The notes beneath the pieces were generated by a model. That model was not told the origin of the DNA. It made no database searches and saw only the letters and a program-made list of their open reading frames with translations. A stretch of DNA of 64,000 nt, taken from IMG/VR virus record IMGVR_UViG_3300035208_003115; one strand, 5' to 3'. Position numbers and translations under genes: made by a program. The stretch comes from a virus (lineage: Duplodnaviria; Caudoviricetes). Shown piece by piece: positions 1,990 through 31,983 of the stretch (positions within the stretch are counted from its first letter, which is position 1; each line of letters begins with the position of its first letter).

Positions 1990-4900
1990 ATGTCAACCGG
2001 CGTAGATATTTCTATCTCTAAACCCGCTATTCCGACTATCAAAGATACTCTTATAGTCTTAGATAAGGCTCTTCCTAAGATTTATGAAAGTAAAACCGTA
2101 GATGCTACCATCTACAAATCCACTGGTGAAGTCATCTTTTCGTTGAAGAATGTCGAAGCCCCAGTTCAATGGAATCAAGTTTCTATTAATATTGCCGCGG
2201 AGAAGTATTTCGCGAAGGGTGAAAACCCAGAAACTTCTGTCTATACAATGGTTAATCGTGTCGCTTCAGAAATTGGTTCTTCAGCTGTTCTTAATAAATA
2301 TATAGAAACAGACACCCAAGAGTTATTTGTAGACGTATTGAGTCGCCTATTACTCGGTCAGTACTATTGCTTTAACTCACCCGTTTGGTTTAACGTAGGA
2401 GTTCATAAGAACCCGCGTATCTCTGCTTGTTTTATTCTCGGAATCGAGGATAACATGCAGTCTATTCTTGAGAATGCTAAAACAGAAGGGATGATTTATA
2501 AATATGGGTCAGGTTCGGGAGTTAATTACTCGCCTTTACGAGGGCGTAAAGAACGTCTTAGTCACGGTGGCGTATCTAGTGGTGTTATGTCTTTTGTTGA
2601 TATTGGGGATGCTGTTGCTGGGTCTATTAAGTCCGGGGGGCGCACCCGCCGGGCTGCCAAGATGGTCATTCTCGATGTCGATCATCCGGATATTGAGGAA
2701 TTCGTTTCCTCTAAAATCAAAGAAGAAAAGAAGGCCAAGGTCCTAATTGATGCTGGTTATAGTTCTGAGTTTGATGACGAGCATGGAGCCTATGCGACTA
2801 TTCGATTCCAGAATGCAAATCATTCTGTCCGGGTTACTGATGACTTCATGAATGCTGTCGATAAAGGGTCTCAGTGGGCACTCATCGGCCGAGTTCCTTC
2901 AACCGAACCGAAGATGGTAGAAGCCAAGGATTTATTCCACGATATTGCTGCTGCAGCCTGGAGTTGCGGAGACCCGGGCCTACAATTCGATACTACGATT
3001 AATCGCTTTAATACTTTGTGGGCAACAGCTCGTATTAACGGATCAAATCCGTGTGTGGTAGGGAGAACGCTGATTGCGACCGGAGATGGTTATAAGAGAA
3101 TAGATTCTCTTGTGGGTAGAACTCTTACGGTCTTAGGTGGAGATGGACACTTCCACCGCGTAGACAAAGTATTTAAGACGGGAACAAAGAGAGTATTTCG
3201 ACTTACGACTCGGGCGGGATATAGTCTTGACTTAACAGAGGACCATCCTGTTTTTACTACTAATCGGGGAGATATCCCCGCTGCCTTATTGAATAAGGAT
3301 GATTTTATCCAGTTGGGGATTCCTTTCTTCGGTTCAGATGAGCGTCTGGGAGAAAATCTTTCTTATGTTGCTGGTCTAGCTCTTGGAGATGGTTGTATTT
3401 GCAACGATAATTTAACCCTTACAATGCATCCAGTAGAAGAAGAACAAATTCTGAAGGAAGTAGCTTCTATTCTAAACGTCGAGAAGAAGCCGTATACTGA
3501 TACCTCTCCCCAAAGTCATTATAAAGATTCTACTCTCAGGCTAGGAACTTCGACAACAGGTCGAGTTACATGCGGGGTAAAAAAGCTTCTCAAGCATCTC
3601 TCCGAATATGTGATATTGGACGGAGGGTCCGAGAATAAGCTTTTAACAAATCAGGGACTGCTATTAAACAAGAAGTGTCTATCAGCTCTCCTTCGGGGGC
3701 TTTTTACTGCAGATGGAACCGTTGCGAATTATGACAATAAGAGTCAATATGTGTCTTTAGACCTTTGCTCTTACGGTTTATTGCAGCAGGTTCAGCTTTT
3801 ACTTCTACAGTATGGAATTAAATCGAAGCTTTATCAAAATCGTCGTGCATTACCTTTATCTGGCCCGATGGGCGCGATGCTACCAGATGGCAAGGGTGGA
3901 CAAAAATGGTATCCAGTTCAGCAGATGCACTCTCTACGCATTAGTAGAAGCTCTAGAATTTTATTCGAGCAGGAGATTGGCTTTGATTCAAAGAGCCCCA
4001 AAGCATTAGCTTTACATCTTTTAAATGAGAATAAAAATACTTATAAGGATTTTTTAGTTGATCCTGTGGCGTCTGTCGAGTTAGTTAGTACGGAAGATGT
4101 TTATGACCTAACAGAACCTGCTACTTCCCATTTTGTTGCCAATGGGATTGTTGTGCATAATTGTTCTGAATTTATGAGCATAGATAATAGTTCCTGTAAT
4201 CTTGCGTCCATCAATTTGATGAAGTTCCGAACACATGATGGTTTCGACTATAATTTATTTAATGCTGTGTGTTTCCTGGGAACAGTAGCTCTTGACATTC
4301 TGATATGTGACGCCAGCTATCCTACTCCTCTTATTGCCCAGAATGTGCAGAAGTATCGTCAGGTTGGTTTGGGTTATGCAAATCTGGGAGCTTTTGTTAT
4401 GTCCCGAGGACTCCCATATGATAGCGATGAGGCTAGACATTTGGCCGCAGGAATTACTGCTTGTATGACGGCTTCTAGCTGGCTCGCTTCTGTCGAAATG
4501 GCTAGAGTCTTAGGGCCATTCGATGAGTTCGAAAAGAACAAAGATGGGATGGAGAGTGTTTTAGCCGCCCATCTTACACAAGCCGCTAATCGATCTCTTA
4601 CAGATTGTCTTAAATCTCCAGGGTATCATGTTGCTCATAGTTTATTCCTCCAGGTTTTTGATGGTATGAAACAGTGCGGAATAAGGAACTCTTATCTTAC
4701 TAATCTTGCTCCTACCGGAACAATTGGTTTGCTTCTGGGATGCGATACAACGGGTATTGAACCGGAGTTAGCTCTCGTTAAGTATAAGAAACTAGTAGGT
4801 GGTGGCTTTGAAAAGTTTGTAAATCAAACTATACCCATTGCATTAGAAGAGCTGGGTTTTAACAAATCTGCAGTAACAAGCGCTTGTGCTTATATCCTTG

Positions 4901-20772: not shown

Positions 20773-20826
20773 GCTAGGTGTAAGTCGGGGAAGCTGACCG
20801 GGAGCAGCGCCGGCTACCTAGCACCA
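20773..20826 (+). ncRNA. CCA-ended tRNA-like minihelix without D or anticodon arm
   Basis: GCTAGGT/ACCTAGC + ACCA; inner AGTCGG/CCGGCT and GCTG/CAGC. Confidence 0.5.
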
Positions 20827-20852
20827 TGGAATGTAAAGGATTAAGGTTATAC

Positions 20853-20929
20853 GCTCTCTTAGTTCAGTGGTCCAGAACGCTTGCTTTACATGCAAGATGT
20901 CGCAGGTTCGAATCCTGCAGAGAGCACCA
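20853..20929 (+). tRNA. tRNA-Val(TAC)
   Basis: cttgc-ttTACat-gcaag, CCA. Confidence 0.95.
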
Positions 20930-20931
20930 AA

Positions 20932-21059
20932 TTGAGGCCGTTTAGTGAAAAGGTTAGTGGCTCAGTTGGCAGAGCGCCCGCCCAAAAAGCGGGTTGATGT
21001 GGGTTCGAGTCCCACCTAACTATTGCCTTTAGTGGGCAATCACTAAAACCATCCCTCAA
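20932..21059 (+). ncRNA. tRNA-like cloverleaf (AAA at the anticodon position, no CCA) inside a longer closing stem
   Basis: cloverleaf 20952-21021; flanks TTTAGTGA/TCACTAAA and TTGAGG/CCTCAA pair. Confidence 0.55.
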
Positions 21060-21071
21060 ATTGAGGCAAGT

Positions 21072-21145
21072 GGGTCTAAAGCATTGTAGCGATGCAGTCG
21101 GCTCTTAACCGACAGAGCTCGGGGCAGTACCGGGTAGGCCCACCA
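21072..21145 (+). tRNA. tRNA-Lys(CTT), T-loop GGCAGTA
   Basis: gtcgg-ctCTTaa-ccgac, CCA. Confidence 0.85.
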
Positions 21146-21166
21146 ATTTAGAACTAGGAAGCTACG

Positions 21167-22231
21167 ATGAAGTCAAAGAAATTATACAAGAAGACGTCTG
21201 TTGGAGACTTACAATACTGGCAGATTGAGGTTAAGGGCGCAGAAATAATCACCTACTATGGTAAAGTGGGTGGAACCGAGATGGAGACTCACGATGTAGT
21301 TCGTGAAGCTAAATCTCAGGATACGATTGAGAAGCAAGCTGTGTCTGAAGCTGAGTCACAGTTTAAAGCCAAAGTAAAGAAGGGCTACGTTCTTGAGATA
21401 GATAGAGCTCAGGGCGGAGAGACCAATCATACGGGCGGTTGGTTTCCAATGTTGGCTCATAAGTTTCGGGACCATGGACATAAGATAGTTTATCCGGCGT
21501 ATGTTCAGCCCAAGCTTGATGGGTACCGATGTGTTAGTGATCCGGATCAGACATTGTGGACACGTACTCGTAAGCCTCATTTGGGTGTTCCCCATATTGC
21601 GGCGGCATTACCAGAGGGAGTTCGGCTTGATGGTGAGCTTTATAACCACAAGTACAAGGATAACTTCGAACGTATCTCACATCTGGTAAATCAGAAGTTA
21701 GAGGCAGCTGATGGGCATGAGGTAGTTCAGTACCACGTGTATGATGTGAATATGCCCGGCTCTTTTGAAGAGAGGCATACATGGTTAAGAGCTAACCTTC
21801 CGAAAGGATTGCCTTTCGTTTTGGTGGAAACCAAGAAGGTTAACGACGAAGACGAGTTGATGGAAGCTTTCGAGTATTATCGCTCGAAGGGATATGAAGG
21901 GGCGATGGTAAGGAATGCGGCAGCACCCTATGAAATGAAGCGCTCCTATAATCTGTTGAAGATAAAGGAGTTCGACGATGCTGAGTTCAAGATTGTGGGG
22001 ATTGAGGAGGGCCGAGGCAGATTGATGGGGCATGTCGGTGCCTTCATCTGCGAGACTTCTAATGGGACTCGGTTCAATGCTAAGATGATCGGCGAGACAT
22101 CTAAGCTCAAGGAATACTTTGACAATTATAAACTCTGGGAAGGTAAGTCCCTAACGGTTCAGTATCAGGGTCTTACTACCAAGAATAAAGTGCCTCGATT
22201 TCCCAGAGGAATAAGATTTAGAGAGGACTAG
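21167..22231 (+). CDS. ATP-dependent DNA ligase with WGR-like N-terminus
   Basis: QPKLDGYR, LDGELY, YEGAMVR, LLKIKEF.DAEF, PRFP. Confidence 0.93.
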   Translation: MKSKKLYKKTSVGDLQYWQIEVKGAEIITYYGKVGGTEMETHDVVREAKSQDTIEKQAVSEAESQFKAKVKKGYVLEIDRAQGGETNHTGGWFPMLAHKFRDHGHKIVYPAYVQPKLDGYRCVSDPDQTLWTRTRKPHLGVPHIAAALPEGVRLDGELYNHKYKDNFERISHLVNQKLEAADGHEVVQYHVYDVNMPGSFEERHTWLRANLPKGLPFVLVETKKVNDEDELMEAFEYYRSKGYEGAMVRNAAAPYEMKRSYNLLKIKEFDDAEFKIVGIEEGRGRLMGHVGAFICETSNGTRFNAKMIGETSKLKEYFDNYKLWEGKSLTVQYQGLTTKNKVPRFPRGIRFRED

Positions 22232-22235
22232 GTAA

Positions 22236-22403
22236 ACCCAAGCTCTAGACCCGAGAGGGTGGATAGAGTTCCTACGGCCCATGTGGCGTTGCTTCTCGTT
22301 AGCCGGAGATCGATACGGCAGGAAACGGTAGGATGTAAGCGGTGCGGGTAGGAATGGATTCCCGCCTAGAGCGAACGGGTACTAAGCGCATTACAGTGCG
22401 CTT
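22236..22403 (+). ncRNA. candidate multi-branch structured RNA
   Basis: GCTCTAG/CTAGAGC, ACCC-GAGA-GGGT, TCCTAC/GTAGGA, GCGGG/CCCGC, AAGCGCAT/GTGCGCTT. Confidence 0.5.
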
Positions 22404-22445
22404 TAAGAAGAGTTTAACGAGTTAATGCGCAATAGAATGCGCAAT

Positions 22446-22534
22446 GCGCTTATGGTGAAATGCAGACACGCAGGACTAAGGATCCTGTGGGGGTAAAGTC
22501 CCCCGTGAAGGTGCAAATCCTTCTAGGCGCACCA
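22446..22534 (+). tRNA. tRNA-Leu(AAG), A34
   Basis: cagga-ctAAGga-tcctg, long V arm, A73, CCA. Confidence 0.9.
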
Positions 22535-22539
22535 TACGT

Positions 22540-22626
22540 TCCAGGGTAGGCTAATGGCAAGTCGGCGGCCTGTTAAGTCGCTGGGCCGTAAGGCCCTTCT
22601 AGGTTCGAGTCCTAGTCCTGGAGCCA
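22540..22626 (+). tRNA. tRNA-Asn(GTT) with long variable arm
   Basis: gcggc-ctGTTaa-gtcgc; V arm GGGCC-GTAA-GGCCC; G73, CCA. Confidence 0.88.
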
Positions 22627-22659
22627 TTAAGATAATGCGGAGAACAGTACAGATAAGAT

Positions 22660-22735
22660 TGCGCGTTAGTTTAGCTGGCAAAACGCTCGGCTCTGAACCG
22701 AGAGAGGCTACGTTCGAACCGTAGACGCGCAACCA
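22660..22735 (+). tRNA. tRNA-Gln(CTG)
   Basis: ctcgg-ctCTGaa-ccgag, CCA. Confidence 0.9.
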
Positions 22736-22740
22736 TTTAA

Positions 22741-22770
22741 GGATGGGTTCGAATCCCTGTCCTAGAACCA
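22741..22770 (+). pseudogene. 3' tRNA fragment (T arm, acceptor, CCA)
   Basis: GGGTTCGAATCCC..TCCTAGAACCA with no 5' half visible. Confidence 0.55.
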
Positions 22771-22784
22771 TTAAGAAGGTGAAC

Positions 22785-23201
22785 ATGAGATACGAGTGTA
22801 CAGAAGGAAATCATAATAAGTACTGGGAATATGAGGAACCAATCCGGCATGGGTCTTCATGGGGCGTTAGAGTTACTTGGGGTAAAATTGGAACCGTAGG
22901 TGGAACCCAAGAGAAGATTTTCGAATCCTTAAATGCTGCAGAAGACTTTATTACTGATAAGATTTATGAGAAGGAGACGAAGGGGTATCGAGAGGTTTCT
23001 CAACAATCTACAAGACACGAATCGAATTGTACTTGTTCTATCCATACAGATATCTGGGATATAGGAACTGCGGAGGAAGTGGGTAAAAAGGCAAAAGGTA
23101 AGACAGCCTCTCCTAAGTCTAAAAGGGAGAAGGAAGGAATTGACGTAATCGACTTTGATTTAATTGCTGAGCCAGTTAAGAAGAAAGTGTCAAAGAAATA
23201 A
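22785..23201 (+). CDS. WGR domain protein
   Basis: NKYWE....VTWGKIGT.G...K.F.....A......I.EK..KGY. Confidence 0.8.
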   Translation: MRYECTEGNHNKYWEYEEPIRHGSSWGVRVTWGKIGTVGGTQEKIFESLNAAEDFITDKIYEKETKGYREVSQQSTRHESNCTCSIHTDIWDIGTAEEVGKKAKGKTASPKSKREKEGIDVIDFDLIAEPVKKKVSKK

Positions 23202-23202
23202 T

Positions 23203-23276
23203 CGGAGATAAGTGTTACGGTAGCACACGTGCTTTGGGAGCATGTAGCGCAGGTTCAACTCCTGCATTTCCGACCA
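23203..23276 (+). tRNA. tRNA-Pro(TGG)
   Basis: cgtgc-ttTGGga-gcatg, CCA. Confidence 0.9.
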
Positions 23277-23279
23277 ATA

Positions 23280-23437
23280 CTCCTGCAAGTGTTAGTGGCT
23301 GGTGTCACGGAGTAGTAACGAGAAGGACTCAGCATGTAGTTCAGCAAGTAGAACGCTCGGTTCGGGACCGAGAGGCCGCAGGGGCGGAGCCTGCCATGCT
23401 GACCAATTAGGAAGTTCAACTCTTCCGCGGGAGACCA
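23280..23437 (+). pseudogene. split tRNA remnant (5' from 23280, 3' 23410-23437) bracketing tRNA-Pro(CGG)
   Basis: CTCCTGC pairs with GCGGGAG-ACCA; T arm GGAAG-TTCAACT-CTTCC. Confidence 0.6.
23330..23405 (+). tRNA. tRNA-Pro(CGG)
   Basis: ctcgg-ttCGGga-ccgag, atypical T loop, CCA. Confidence 0.85.
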
Positions 23438-23452
23438 TTTTAAGGAGCTAAA

Positions 23453-23695
23453 ATGCAATTTAGAAAGAAGCCAGTTGTAGTCGAAGCAGTTCAGCTTACC
23501 TCTGCGATGCTTGACGGAATCGAGTCACTTCCAGGGGGTGTCTTTCGTAATTCGGAACGTAACTTCGGCGTTGTAACTCTTGAAGGAGTTATGACGGGTA
23601 ATGCTGGCGATTGGCTAATCACTGGGGTAAAAGGCGAGAAGTATATCTGTCGAAGAGATATCTTTGAACAGACATACGAAAGAGTATTGGTATAG
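23453..23695 (+). CDS. conserved phage protein (PGDYG-like)
   Basis: FRKKPVVVEAVQ...TLEG.M....GDW.I.GVKGE.Y.C..DIF..TY. Confidence 0.75.
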   Translation: MQFRKKPVVVEAVQLTSAMLDGIESLPGGVFRNSERNFGVVTLEGVMTGNAGDWLITGVKGEKYICRRDIFEQTYERVLV

Positions 23696-23697
23696 TT

Positions 23698-23730
23698 GTC
23701 GCGTTCGTCTATCGGTAAGGACACCGCGCT
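23698..23730 (+). pseudogene. 5' half of disrupted tRNA-Glu(TTC)
   Basis: GTCGCGT acceptor, D arm, CCGCG-CT; complements the 3' half at 24324-24365. Confidence 0.85.
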
Positions 23731-23731
23731 G

Positions 23732-23760
23732 TTGACATAATATTCTATATGTGCTATAAT
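23732..23760 (+). promoter_or_regulatory. consensus sigma70 promoter for the HNH cassette
   Basis: TTGACA-17 nt-TATAAT. Confidence 0.9.
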
Positions 23761-23778
23761 CCATAAAAGGAGAATAGC

Positions 23779-24258
23779 ATGATCTCAAAGTTGAACAAGT
23801 TAACTGATGTGCAATTTGTGGGTCTTGTAAGCAAGTGTAACTCAATTGCCGAGGTGGTTTCAAAGCTCGGTTATGCTGTTACTGGTTCTGGACACACGAA
23901 GGTAAGAGATAGAATTCAACTTCTTGGCCTTTATGATTCTTTGATTAAGAGAACTAATCTACTCCGAGGTAGATGTCTTCGATTGGCTAACAGAATCTCG
24001 GATAAAGAGTTTCTTGTGAAGGGCGTAAGAAGACATAACTCATGTCTTAGAAAAAGGTTAATACTACTCGGGATACCTTATTGCTGTTCTGGGTGTGGAC
24101 TTGAGGCTAAGTGGAATGGCAAGGTTTTATCCCTTCAAATCGATCATATCGATGGAGATAGGGACAATAATACAAAAGAGAATTTGCGTTTTATGTGTCC
24201 GAACTGTCATTCCCAGACACCGACGTTTAGTGGGAAGAATAATAAAAGACCGCATTAG
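23779..24258 (+). CDS. HNH homing endonuclease
   Basis: CSGCG..W....L.LQIDHIDGD..NN..ENLRFMCPNCHSQT. Confidence 0.92.
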   Translation: MISKLNKLTDVQFVGLVSKCNSIAEVVSKLGYAVTGSGHTKVRDRIQLLGLYDSLIKRTNLLRGRCLRLANRISDKEFLVKGVRRHNSCLRKRLILLGIPYCCSGCGLEAKWNGKVLSLQIDHIDGDRDNNTKENLRFMCPNCHSQTPTFSGKNNKRPH

Positions 24259-24322
24259 AACATGGGTAGTTCGCCTCCCTTTCAAGGAGGAAAAACGAGT
24301 TCGAGCCTCGTATGCGGTACCA
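24249..24322 (+). tRNA. tRNA-Glu(TTC), replacement copy
   Basis: cctcc-ctTTCaa-ggagg, CCA; contains the HNH stop codon. Confidence 0.88.
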
Positions 24323-24323
24323 A

Positions 24324-24365
24324 TTCAACGCGGAGAGGGGAGTTCAATTCTCCCACGCGATACCA
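24324..24365 (+). pseudogene. 3' half of disrupted tRNA-Glu(TTC)
   Basis: TTC-AA-CGCGG, T arm, ACGCGAT-ACCA. Confidence 0.85.
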
Positions 24366-24378
24366 TTAAGGAGTTAAG

Positions 24379-24570
24379 ATGAAGTGTACTTATTGTGAAA
24401 ATGAAGCAGTAATGGAATTAACAAATCTTAAGAATAAAGTAACAAAGAGATTTTGCAAGGGGCACTTTGGGGAGTTCATCACGGATGGGCAATCCAGGGT
24501 TCAAGAACAGTTCTTGGATGTAACAATGGGTCCAAGAGTTGATGCTCACGGAAACCGTGTTCAGCATTAA
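24379..24570 (+). CDS. small Cys/His protein
   Basis: CxxC...CxxH, RBS. Confidence 0.55.
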   Translation: MKCTYCENEAVMELTNLKNKVTKRFCKGHFGEFITDGQSRVQEQFLDVTMGPRVDAHGNRVQH

Positions 24571-24574
24571 ATAC

Positions 24575-24648
24575 ACGACAATGGTGTAACAGTAGCATCA
24601 CGGACTCCAAACCCGTGGGCGAACGTGCAAATCGTTCTTGTCGTGCCA
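24575..24648 (+). tRNA. tRNA-Trp(CCA)
   Basis: acgga-ctCCAaa-cccgt, G73, CCA. Confidence 0.85.
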
Positions 24649-24653
24649 ATTAT

Positions 24654-24729
24654 GGGCGAGTAGGCCAACGGCAGAGTCAGCGCGCTCAGAACGCGTCCAG
24701 TGCGGGTTCGAATCCCGCTTCGCCCACCA
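24654..24729 (+). tRNA. tRNA-Leu(CAG) lacking a long variable arm
   Basis: gcgcg-ctCAGaa-cgcgt, 5-nt variable loop, CCA. Confidence 0.85.
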
Positions 24730-24746
24730 AATTAAGGAGAACTAGA

Positions 24747-25049
24747 GTGAAGAAATCTGATAAAGGTTTTACTGTAATTGAACTTATAATTCCTATTGCT
24801 ATCATTGGTATTTTGATAGCTGTAGCAACTGACCGGTGGCTTTCAGGCCAGGAAAAGTATTATCAGATTCAGCTTTCTAATGGTACAGTTGTAGCTACAA
24901 AAGGATATACTAAATCCTACTGTGGTCTCAATTTTAAGTCTCTTATGACTGGCGCAGAATATCATTGTATTCAGAATGCGAAAGTCGTAGAGATAAAACC
25001 TGGAGAAGCAAATGAGATTGGAGAGAAATCGTCTACTGCATCAAAATAA
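24747..25049 (+). CDS. type IV prepilin-like protein
   Basis: GTG start with AGGAG; KG/FTVIELIIPIAIIGILIAVA class III signal. Confidence 0.8.
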   Translation: MKKSDKGFTVIELIIPIAIIGILIAVATDRWLSGQEKYYQIQLSNGTVVATKGYTKSYCGLNFKSLMTGAEYHCIQNAKVVEIKPGEANEIGEKSSTASK

Positions 25050-25050
25050 T

Positions 25051-25127
25051 ACCTGTATAGCTTAGCGGTCCAAAGCGTCTCCCTGTCACGGAGAAGATCG
25101 CCGGTTCAAATCCGGTTGCAGGTGCCA
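25051..25127 (+). tRNA. tRNA-Asp(GTC)
   Basis: tctcc-ctGTCac-ggaga, CCA. Confidence 0.92.
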
Positions 25128-25130
25128 TAT

Positions 25131-25217
25131 GGAAGGGTAAACTCGTACGGAGCGAGGAAGCATCCCATGGGATGAACTGCCACGGCTCAGTTGGTTCGAC
25201 TCCAACACCTTCCACTA
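25131..25217 (+). pseudogene. degenerate tRNA-like sequence
   Basis: GGAAGG/CCTTCC, intact T arm, collapsed anticodon loop, ends ACTA. Confidence 0.55.
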
Positions 25218-29411: not shown

Positions 29412-29645
29412 ATGGCATCACGAAAGATTTACCAACTTGAAGCTGAGGGAACCGATGTTCTTGCGGGCAGATGGTTTCCAATCACTGGCATTCAGGGGAG
29501 CTATAGCTACTGCCTAGGAGCTCTTTATATGGCGGATAGCTATTACCCTTGCCCTGCATATAGGATTCGTGATATATTTACTGGGGAGATTAAAGATCAG
29601 ACTCGGGGGCGAAGTGGAGTTAGTACAGGATTACAGACGTTCTAA
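29412..29645 (+). CDS. hypothetical protein
   Basis: ORF between tRNAs. Confidence 0.45.
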   Translation: MASRKIYQLEAEGTDVLAGRWFPITGIQGSYSYCLGALYMADSYYPCPAYRIRDIFTGEIKDQTRGRSGVSTGLQTF

Positions 29646-29647
29646 GT

Positions 29648-29682
29648 GGATCTGTGGCGTACTAGTGTGCGCGCCGCGCTGA
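29648..29682 (+). pseudogene. 5' half of a disrupted tRNA, probably Phe
   Basis: GGATCTG-TG-GCGT..GCGC-G-CCGCG-CT-GA, truncated in the anticodon just before the HNH promoter. Confidence 0.7.
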
Positions 29683-29713
29683 CTTCCGGGCGGACTTATG
29701 ATATAATAAAGAT

Positions 29714-30175
29714 ATGAAGAAGCCAACGTGGGAACCTAGCGAATTGATTGTAGCTGTTCGTACATCTAGAACTGTTTCGGATGTTTTGCGCAAACTTGGC
29801 CTGAAGGTTAGGCCTGGAAACTATACAACTATTCACAAGTATGTGAATAAGTTAGGAATAGACACTAGTCACTTTTTGGGATGTGCTCATGGAACGTCAG
29901 TTCCTGGCAATAAGCTTTCTACAGATTCAATTCTAAGAAAAGGGTCCTATTACCATAGTTCGGACTTAGGACCAAGGCTTATTAAAGAAGGGCTATTAAA
30001 TCCTGTCTGTTCTATTTGTGGTCTTAATAGTAATTGGAATGGCAAGAGCCTTAGATTAGTTCTAGATCACATTAATGGGACGCATACAGATAATCGTTTA
30101 TCTAATCTTCGACTTTTGTGCCCTAATTGCAATAGTCAAACAGATACATTTTGTAGAAGAAAAACGGACAGGTAG
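29714..30175 (+). CDS. HNH homing endonuclease
   Basis: CSICG..W....L.L.LDHING...DN.LSNLRLLCPNC.SQT; TATAAT at 29702. Confidence 0.92.
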   Translation: MKKPTWEPSELIVAVRTSRTVSDVLRKLGLKVRPGNYTTIHKYVNKLGIDTSHFLGCAHGTSVPGNKLSTDSILRKGSYYHSSDLGPRLIKEGLLNPVCSICGLNSNWNGKSLRLVLDHINGTHTDNRLSNLRLLCPNCNSQTDTFCRRKTDR

Positions 30176-30949: not shown

Positions 30950-30976
30950 GGAAGTGGGGAGGCCGGTGCCTCGAGC
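30950..30976 (+). pseudogene. 5' half of disrupted tRNA-Ile(TAT)-like gene
   Basis: GGAAGTG pairs with CGCTTCC-ACCA (31543-31553); D arm GAGGC-CGGT-GCCTC. Confidence 0.7.
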
Positions 30977-31353
30977 TATAAATTATAGTGGGGATAATGT
31001 AGCTCCATATGGCAATTAGCGCATAGGAGTTTACATTTGAGACTTTCTTTTAAAAGTTCTTCTTTATTTCGGTTCATCAATGAATCGAGTCCTAGAGTAA
31101 ATCGCTTCTCTTTCGGGTCTTCATGATGGAAGGAAAGGGCAGATGCGTTTTTAGAATACCCACATATTTCGCATTTCCCTCCTTTATTTTGGATTAAGAA
31201 CTTTCGCATATCTATTCCTCTTTGCGCAGAAGTTCTTAAATAGTTTGGTTGAGAGTGATAGAAATGTTGACGACATTTGTCAGAGCAGTATTTCTTGCTC
31301 GGGTTGGGAGTTTCAAAAACTTTCTTACAGTCTGGACATGTTTTAGTATTCAT
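30976..31353 (-). CDS. HNH endonuclease with N-terminal Zn finger
   Basis: CPDC...YCSDKC; KCEICGY....AL.FHH.DP..K...KC.LLCANCH.E.H. Confidence 0.88.
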   Translation of the reverse strand: MNTKTCPDCKKVFETPNPSKKYCSDKCRQHFYHSQPNYLRTSAQRGIDMRKFLIQNKGGKCEICGYSKNASALSFHHEDPKEKRFTLGLDSLMNRNKEELLKESLKCKLLCANCHMELHYPHYNL

Positions 31354-31490: not shown

Positions 31491-31491
31491 A

Positions 31492-31553
31492 TTTATAAAC
31501 GGTTGCCCTAGATTGGGGCCTAGATCCAGGATCGACACCTGGCGCTTCCACCA
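31492..31553 (+). pseudogene. 3' half of disrupted tRNA-Ile(TAT)-like gene
   Basis: TT-TAT-AA-ACGGTT, V arm GCCCT-AGATT-GGGGC, T arm CCAGG/CCTGG, ACCA. Confidence 0.75.
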
Positions 31554-31881: not shown

Positions 31882-31914
31882 GGCTCGTCTAATGGTTAGG
31901 GCGCTGGGTTGTGG
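31878..31914 (+). pseudogene. 5' half of disrupted tRNA-His(GTG)
   Basis: GTAAGGC-TC-GTCT-AATGGTT-AGGGC..CTGGG-TT-GTG-G, then AT-rich sequence. Confidence 0.7.
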
Positions 31915-31983
31915 TAATTTTTATGATTTCTTCAACGGTTAGAGAAACCATAAATAATAAATCAATTGAGGTAGTGCTTGTAT

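Follow-up and report, generated by a model that had tools for sequence, protein, structure and literature searches.

The 64,000-nucleotide (nt) stretch of viral DNA in IMG/VR record IMGVR_UViG_3300035208_003115 (Duplodnaviria; Caudoviricetes), which we will call the window, contains a transfer RNA (tRNA) gene, tRNA-Glu(UUC), that is broken within its anticodon loop by 593 nt encoding an HNH homing-type endonuclease and a second, intact tRNA-Glu(UUC). We consider it probable that this insert is a free-standing homing-endonuclease cassette which entered the anticodon loop at the DNA level and brought a rescue (cargo) tRNA with it, leaving the two halves of the old gene as relics. The comparative evidence points to such a mobile insertion into DNA: for relatives of the nuclease both filled and empty sites exist and a tract of co-conversion is seen, one of their relics (at locus L101) has acquired a mismatch, and the other tRNA relics in the window have no partners. 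On balance, and with more reserve, we also lean towards the view that the cassette belongs to a natural gene drive, in which an HNH family invades tRNA anticodon loops and carries with it a tRNA of the same anticodon that is presumably resistant to cleavage, in the manner of 'cleave-and-rescue' or 'home-and-rescue' elements.

The old 5' half (33 nt) contains the 5' strand of the acceptor stem, a D arm of the typical bacterial Glu type (U11-A24, U13-G22), the 5' strand of the anticodon stem, C32 and U33, and the 3' half (42 nt) continues with TTC, AA, the 3' strand of the anticodon stem, the variable loop, the T arm, the 3' strand of the acceptor stem and ACCA (Table 1). Joined together they make 75 nt that ARAGORN calls as tRNA-Glu(ttc), with the acceptor stem paired at 7/7 positions (one G-U) and the anticodon stem at 5/5, with a D arm, the T-loop TTCAATT and ACCA, and at minimum energy (-27.8 kcal/mol) this sequence folds into a perfect cloverleaf. 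The 3' half is recognised by Rfam even alone, as a 5'-truncated tRNA (17.2 bits), and GTCGCGT at 23698 is the sole 7/7 match to its acceptor strand within 3.5 kilobases (kb) upstream. ARAGORN by itself is lenient, since it passes 26 of the ~128,000 window positions as a 5' partner of the 3' half, and therefore a stricter join test was used, which demands full pairing of the acceptor (7/7) and anticodon (5/5) stems, with a minimum of 10 Watson-Crick pairs, and a junction within the anticodon loop. As the intron mode of ARAGORN gave mainly chimeras of adjoining intact tRNAs with the intron misplaced, a join-and-test scan was written in its place. The locus passes the strict test, while decoy pairings of unrelated flanks passed in 0/80 cases (8.4 million joins). 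The break falls unambiguously between U33 and U34, because the insert opens with G where T34 would be expected and closes with A where T33 would be expected.

Every base of the insert (23731-24323) can be assigned to the promoter, an untranslated region, the open reading frame or the tRNA. The TAG stop codon of the nuclease gene is formed by U8-A9-G10 of the cargo tRNA, and a single A separates the end of this tRNA from the old 3' half. The same 10-nt overlap of HNH and tRNA genes is found in a paralogue in the window (29714-30175, with tRNA-Phe(GAA)) and in Gordonia phage Norvs (with tRNA-Asn), and occurs at 5 of the 80 family loci surveyed. Due to this overlap RNase P processing of the cargo would remove the stop codon of the nuclease, which may keep its expression low; low expression through an overlap with tRNA processing has been proposed for segB of T4 (PMC2330249). 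The cargo, the sole intact tRNA-Glu of the window, shares 63% identity with its old counterpart; the two agree throughout the 7-nt anticodon loop but diverge at 4 of 10 positions in the anticodon stem and at most positions in the other stems. With its own consensus promoter, ribosome-binding site, nuclease gene and a diverged tRNA overlapping the nuclease stop, the cassette is, as predicted from its parts, autonomous and compact. The original prediction, made from the letters of the DNA, had described two pieces that join into a full tRNA-Glu(TTC), a split exactly between U33 and the anticodon, and an insert consisting of a 12/12 promoter, a ribosome-binding site, an HNH gene and a new tRNA-Glu(TTC). 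The join is borne out by the ARAGORN call, the cloverleaf fold and the strict test, the first and last bases of the insert leave just one position for the break, and sequence, Pfam, ARAGORN and Rfam confirmed each part of the insert.

Table 1. Features of the interrupted tRNA-Glu locus, in window coordinates.
Feature	Position	Strand	Details
Old tRNA-Glu(UUC), 5' half, positions 1-33	23698..23730	+	last base U33
Sigma-70-type promoter of the cassette	23732..23760	+	TTGACA, 17 nt, TATAAT; 12/12; TG before -10
Shine-Dalgarno site (AAAAGGAG)	23765..23772	+	GGAG 6 nt 5' of ATG, read from sequence
HNH homing-type endonuclease, 159 amino acids	23779..24258	+	Pfam HNH, phrog_10822
Cargo (replacement) tRNA-Glu(UUC), 74 nt with CCA	24249..24322	+	ARAGORN; Rfam 59.5 bits
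Old tRNA-Glu(UUC), 3' half, positions 34-76	24324..24365	+	anticodon TTC, T arm, acceptor 3' strand, ACCA

The nuclease gene is, to judge from its product, intact. The protein matches Pfam PF01844 (E=3.8e-6, 27.4 bits against a cutoff of 21.4) and phrog_10822 (E=3e-39), and retains every residue that is invariant in an alignment of 16 family members (15 columns), including C103, C106, D122, H123, N135, C140-P-N-C143, S145 and Q146, as well as H144, which is nearly invariant in the family. The AlphaFold2 model (mean predicted local distance difference test score of 86) comprises a helical N-domain and a beta-beta-alpha HNH core, and the C-terminal domain is predicted to be zinc-bound, with both the catalytic motif and the zinc cysteines intact. 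Structure and sequence searches of the PDB returned weak generic HNH matches (I-HmuI, E=0.36; McrA and Cap5, E>0.05), and residues 74-154 are 40% identical to F-TflIV (hegA) from the tRNA region of T5/BF23, with the N-terminal half unaligned. The family is widespread among large phages (relatives at 32-43% identity) and mostly found within tRNA arrays: this is so for 15 of the 16 close IMG/VR family loci, and among the 80 further family loci a tRNA lies no more than 1.2 kb away in 59 and starts between -38 and +19 nt from the HNH stop in 31.

The closest relative, P0002 (43% identity), is encoded at locus L100 on a 185-kb contig, where the order is a tRNA-Phe 5' half ending at U33, 15 nt, a new tRNA-Phe(GAA), the HNH gene and a tRNA-Phe 3' half starting from A35. 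Two syntenic loci, L224 and L225, carry an uninterrupted tRNA-Phe(GAA) that equals the joined L100 halves plus G34; their flanks are 69-96% identical to those of L100 and the tRNA order Leu-Phe-Pro-Tyr-Trp-Met is common to all. Against this empty site, L100 differs by one indel that holds both the tRNA and the HNH gene. A second strain with the tRNA-Phe cassette, L101, has no differences from L100 over 864 nt (2643-3506), a tract that runs from the intergenic region through the old 5' half, the cargo tRNA and the HNH gene into the old 3' half, most of which it includes. Outside the tract the two strains differ by 3.3% in the upstream gene and by up to 13% downstream, and at 3.3% about 28 differences would be expected within it. 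We read this zero-divergence tract as a signature of co-conversion, with the nuclease at the centre of a recent gene conversion. The strains first differ by T67 to C in the acceptor strand of the relic; this leaves an uncompensated A6-C67 mismatch in L101, which argues that the relic is not under selection.

Cultured phages provide a second pair of filled and empty sites. In Enterococcus phage PEf771, tRNA-Lys(CTT) is interrupted after T36 (with a 1-nt ambiguity) by a family member at 39% identity that has a promoter of its own, and the same tRNA is intact in Enterococcus phage EFDG1 and ~25 other Schiekvirus genomes, the flanks of which are 97-99% identical to PEf771. This insert has no cargo tRNA, and a tRNA-Lys(TTT) is found 135 nt downstream. 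A strict scan of the 80 further family loci revealed two nested cases. One of them, L220, has the architecture of the window (5' half, HNH gene, new tRNA(TAA), 3' half, with TAA also as the old anticodon); the other, L207, is a nested HNH gene without a cargo tRNA. Seven family loci of cultured phages (S-CRM01, Francesca, ESa2, phage 113, phiPsa347, Bohxovirus and Norvs) contained no strict split tRNA, and an intact allele of the L220 split tRNA was looked for and not found. The cargo anticodon equals the interrupted one in all three cargo-bearing nested cases (Glu in the window, Phe in L100, TAA in L220); the scan did not use the anticodon match as a criterion, and the chance of three such matches is roughly (1/25)^3. 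Members of this family are thus, as filled and empty alleles indicate, elements that insert into anticodon loops at the DNA level. Both UAA tRNAs of L220, the interrupted one (1401-1433 and 2030-2070) and the nested replacement (1956-2029), are 74-76 nt long and of class I, without the long variable arm expected of a bacterial tRNA-Leu.

Could the tRNA and the nuclease have come together by other means? They might have arrived in separate events, or been brought side by side by nuclease-stimulated rearrangement or amplification, so that the tRNA is a passive neighbour. Homing nucleases of tRNA clusters do drive co-conversion and segmental amplification of their neighbours, as known for SegB (PMC2330249; PMC13096335), the nested PEf771 and L207 members have no cargo tRNA, and the gene order differs between the window (HNH, then tRNA) and L100 (tRNA, then HNH). 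However, in three independent cases the cargo is nested in a broken gene of matching anticodon, in L100 the tRNA and the HNH gene came as a single indel relative to the empty site, the whole unit of L100 and L101 lies within one zero-divergence tract, and with the HNH stop inside the cargo tRNA the two genes of the window cannot be cleanly separated. We therefore regard separate arrival as unlikely.

Much less probable again is a functional split or intron-containing tRNA, where the halves pair within one long transcript or in trans and the insert is removed or the halves are ligated at the RNA level, for instance by processing nucleases together with an RNA ligase, so that the old tRNA-Glu is still made. 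The halves are pristine, with 12/12 inter-half base pairs intact, and the break at 33/34 corresponds to the position at which tRNA-Lys is cut by the anticodon nuclease PrrC and resealed by T4 Pnk/Rnl1. The 3' half starts one base past the 3' end of the cargo, so that tRNA 3' processing could free its 5' end, and there is precedent for a gene split by a homing nuclease that still works, in nrdA of phage Aeh1 (PMC2988022). On the other hand, Rfam detects no group I or II intron and the insert leaves no room for a ribozyme, cofolding of the junction flanks gives no extra helix or bulge-helix-bulge by the anticodon stem, and no signal sets a 3' end at U33, where the promoter begins 2 nt further on. 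A working split gene would not need the same-anticodon replacement that is supplied here, the L101 relic has its uncompensated A6-C67 mismatch, the partner halves of the other window relics are lost, and the filled and empty sites of the relatives are plain DNA indels. The original prediction had seen no intron features and left rejoining at the RNA level open: the former agrees with the Rfam null result over 19-33 kb and with the full assignment of the insert, while rejoining is kept here as a rival, from which the comparative evidence points away, towards insertion into DNA. Finally, ARAGORN passes ~2 in 10,000 random 5' partners and Rfam does not detect the 5' half alone, even in truncated mode, but a chance resemblance of flanks that were never halves of one gene is effectively refuted by the 12/12 inter-half pairs, the Glu-type D arm, the pieces abutting the insert exactly at both ends, the strict test (0/80 decoys, while the locus passes) and the intact allele that proves the L100 architecture.

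Three known classes of tRNA-gene insertion were considered and rejected. A group I or II intron is rejected, as covariance models find no ribozyme core (Rfam, 19-33 kb, E<=1, no group I or II intron, and none at the related loci either) and all 593 nt are otherwise assigned. An archaeal-type split tRNA or bulge-helix-bulge intron does not fit, as the junction cofold contains no such helix and there is no guide helix. Integrase-mediated integration into a tRNA gene does not apply: the HNH protein and a tRNA are all that the insert encodes, there is no duplicate of either half, and the old gene remains broken.

Returning to the DNA-level cassette, we propose that upon co-infection a relative's tRNA-Glu gene of the old type, still uninterrupted, would be nicked or cut by the nuclease within or close to the anticodon arm, and that recombinational repair off the cassette-bearing genome would copy the cassette into the break. 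The interrupted allele would be immune because its recognition site is split, and the cargo gene would escape cleavage via the differences in its stems. The cargo tRNA would restore decoding of GAA and GAG, hence the invasion would carry little cost, and the two old halves would be non-functional relics of a recent event. In this scheme we infer the cleavage specificity, the immunity of the cargo gene, the charging of the cargo with glutamate and the inactivity of the halves.

Several points weigh against this interpretation. Over the central 17 nt (anticodon stem and loop) the cargo matches the target at 13 positions, so that immunity of the cargo gene is not obvious by sequence. The cargo has A1-U72, C2-G71, A11-U24 and C13-G22, and so is without the U11-A24 and U13-G22 features in the D arm of the old gene, which we take to be identity elements for E. 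coli glutamyl-tRNA synthetase; the glutamate identity of the cargo, read from the anticodon alone, is uncertain. The old halves are without any decay, which retained function would explain as well as a very recent event. Clean flanking halves are rare in the family (2/80 loci) and most members are intergenic. Lastly, in the collections searched there is no empty-site allele or diverged relative of the window locus itself, and the case thus rests on analogy with relatives of the nuclease that are 34-43% identical.

This last point follows from what was found of the phage in other data. The region 20779-25105 is 100% identical in groundwater and landfill assemblies and the insert is always present; as the three samples of the phage are 100% identical at the locus, they offer no markers for flanking co-conversion there. 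Identical-protein matches for the HNH protein and both its small neighbours lead only to 100% copies from the same phage, all with the insert. A megablast search of GenBank phages with the region gave no match, and neither the joined junction (as a 22-mer) nor the old 3' half (as a 24-mer) occurred in the viral, metagenome and genome contig collections. Logan contigs of two DNA runs contained neither joints nor a variant, rare empty-site molecules being beyond the reach of such contigs. The PGDYG-like neighbour protein has relatives at no more than 54% identity, and the phages related by their DNA ligase, the nearest at 67% identity, have no tRNA array at the matching site. Contigs from SRR6484787 (Logan) and ERZ27247350 (ENA) stop and restart at 24270-24278, in the anticodon stem of the cargo, with a 9-nt overlap; the groundwater assembly is continuous through this point, which is likely a low-depth coverage gap.

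The cassette is part of a tRNA array at ~20.3-32.1 kb, with 24 tRNAs called by ARAGORN on the + strand and more by Rfam. Four HNH genes are found in these 12 kb, at 23779, 29714 (both phrog_10822), 30976-31353 (- strand) and 31513. The array also contains tRNA fragments: a T arm with the acceptor 3' strand directly 3' of tRNA-Pro(CGG) (23410-23437), a His-like 5' piece (31883-31915), and, in the neighbourhood of the antisense HNH gene and tRNA-Ile(TAT), pieces pairing as acceptor strands (30950 and 31491-31553). These fragments have no partner half, as expected if relics decay, and the Glu case, as the only clean one in the window, suggests itself as the most recent.

Other tRNA-like sequences were noted in the array. 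A tRNA-like 5' piece (29641-29713; GGATCTG, D stem GCGT/GCGC, CCGCG-CT-GA) precedes the second phrog_10822 HNH gene, and after it comes a weaker promoter-like TATAAT. The piece shares the anticodon-stem strand CCGCG with the old tRNA-Glu, and no 3' partner for it was found within the window. Directly after tRNA-Asp, 25131-25214 has a canonical T arm (GTTGG-TTCGACT-CCAAC) and an acceptor stem (GGAAGGG/ACCTTCC, 6/7 pairs), with the palindromic ATCCCATGGGAT in the place of the anticodon arm and without CCA, and is called by neither ARAGORN nor Rfam.

Elsewhere in the family, a near-consensus promoter with an extended -10 element, TGTGCTATA(A/T)T, precedes the HNH gene at L137 (1441-1490) and L092 (2963-2992) as it does in the window, and the phages whose cassettes share it are very different (a groundwater phage, Enterococcus phage PEf771 and an IMG/VR contig). 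Directly 3' of the HNH gene in L092 (3516-3619) there is a 104-nt tRNA, found by Rfam (45.9 bits) and missed by ARAGORN, with a 7/7 acceptor stem and ~25 extra nt around the anticodon loop. In L087 an orphan tRNA 3' half (3677-3718; ...CTAAAGCGCC..., T arm, CCA) directly follows an intact tRNA-Arg(CCT), in the same order of new tRNA and then old 3' half as in the window; a convincing 5' partner was not found.

How does the putative cassette compare with known systems? Group I introns interrupt bacterial anticodon loops in cyanobacterial tRNA-Leu(UAA), in tRNA-fMet and in tRNA-Ile of Azoarcus, are self-splicing and take up ~200-300 nt. The insertion into the anticodon loop is common to these and to the window, where in contrast there is neither a detectable ribozyme nor room for one. 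The proposed logic is that of synthetic 'cleave-and-rescue' (ClvR) and 'home-and-rescue' drives, reportedly engineered with Cas9 in insects by Oberhofer, Ivy and Hay in 2019 and by Kandul and colleagues in 2021. In those drives as well, a useful gene is destroyed by a site-specific nuclease that is coupled to a recoded and presumably cleavage-resistant version of the same gene. The putative window version, however, would be natural, phage-borne, protein-only and directed at a tRNA gene.

Among natural elements, free-standing nucleases of the T5 tRNA cluster include F-TflI, II and IV. The tRNA region of T5/BF23 encodes several HNH endonucleases, F-TflIV (hegA) among them (Akulenko et al. 2004, cited in PMC2330249). 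It shares with the window an HNH nuclease gene inside a phage tRNA array, but hegA is intergenic (after tRNA-Ile2) and interrupts nothing, and it is not known to come with a replacement tRNA nested in a broken gene. SegB of T4 is a free-standing GIY-YIG nuclease in a tRNA cluster that cuts the tRNA genes of relatives, leading to preferential inheritance and turnover of neighbouring tRNA genes, and the ends of its open reading frame overlap tRNA processing sites (PMC2330249; PMC13096335). It resembles the window in being a free-standing nuclease in a tRNA array with the gene end overlapping a tRNA, and differs in its nuclease fold, in its intergenic position and in that it co-converts neighbours, with no broken tRNA gene holding a nested substitute. 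The mobE gene in nrdA of phage Aeh1 ('genes in pieces') and the 'fractured genes' with split inteins (PMC2988022; PMC2677866) offer another parallel, as mobE is a free-standing nuclease gene inside a functional gene without an intron; there, however, the split products reassemble and work, whereas in the window the function was probably replaced by the inserted second copy. Split and permuted tRNA genes of Nanoarchaeum and other Archaea rely on complementary leaders, a bulge-helix-bulge and a splicing endonuclease (PMC2237900; PMC3218864). Their halves are likewise parted at or near the anticodon loop, but the window has no bulge-helix-bulge, and its promoter and ribosome-binding site are of the bacterial type. 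HNH genes in mycobacteriophage arrays have been credited with tRNA diversity (PMC5966550 and PMC6409571, citing Pope 2014). The literature searched contains associations of nucleases with tRNA clusters; in it we found no description of a free-standing nuclease inside an anticodon loop, nor of a nuclease carrying a replacement tRNA gene of the same anticodon.

Homing endonucleases usually spare their host, either by an intergenic position or by residing in self-splicing introns or inteins. To break a gene and bring a substitute copy along would be a third solution, with the logic of the engineered cleave-and-rescue drives. If this is true, it would help to explain why phage tRNA arrays are so variable, why they are strewn with tRNA fragments that gene finders pass over, and why HNH genes are so frequently interspersed in them, and the family would supply nucleases that naturally recognise long sites within tRNA genes. 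Were the family indeed to act by cleave-and-rescue, the tRNA alleles of phage arrays would be turned over by a selfish drive, which could also supply tRNA variants that escape the anticodon nucleases of the host.

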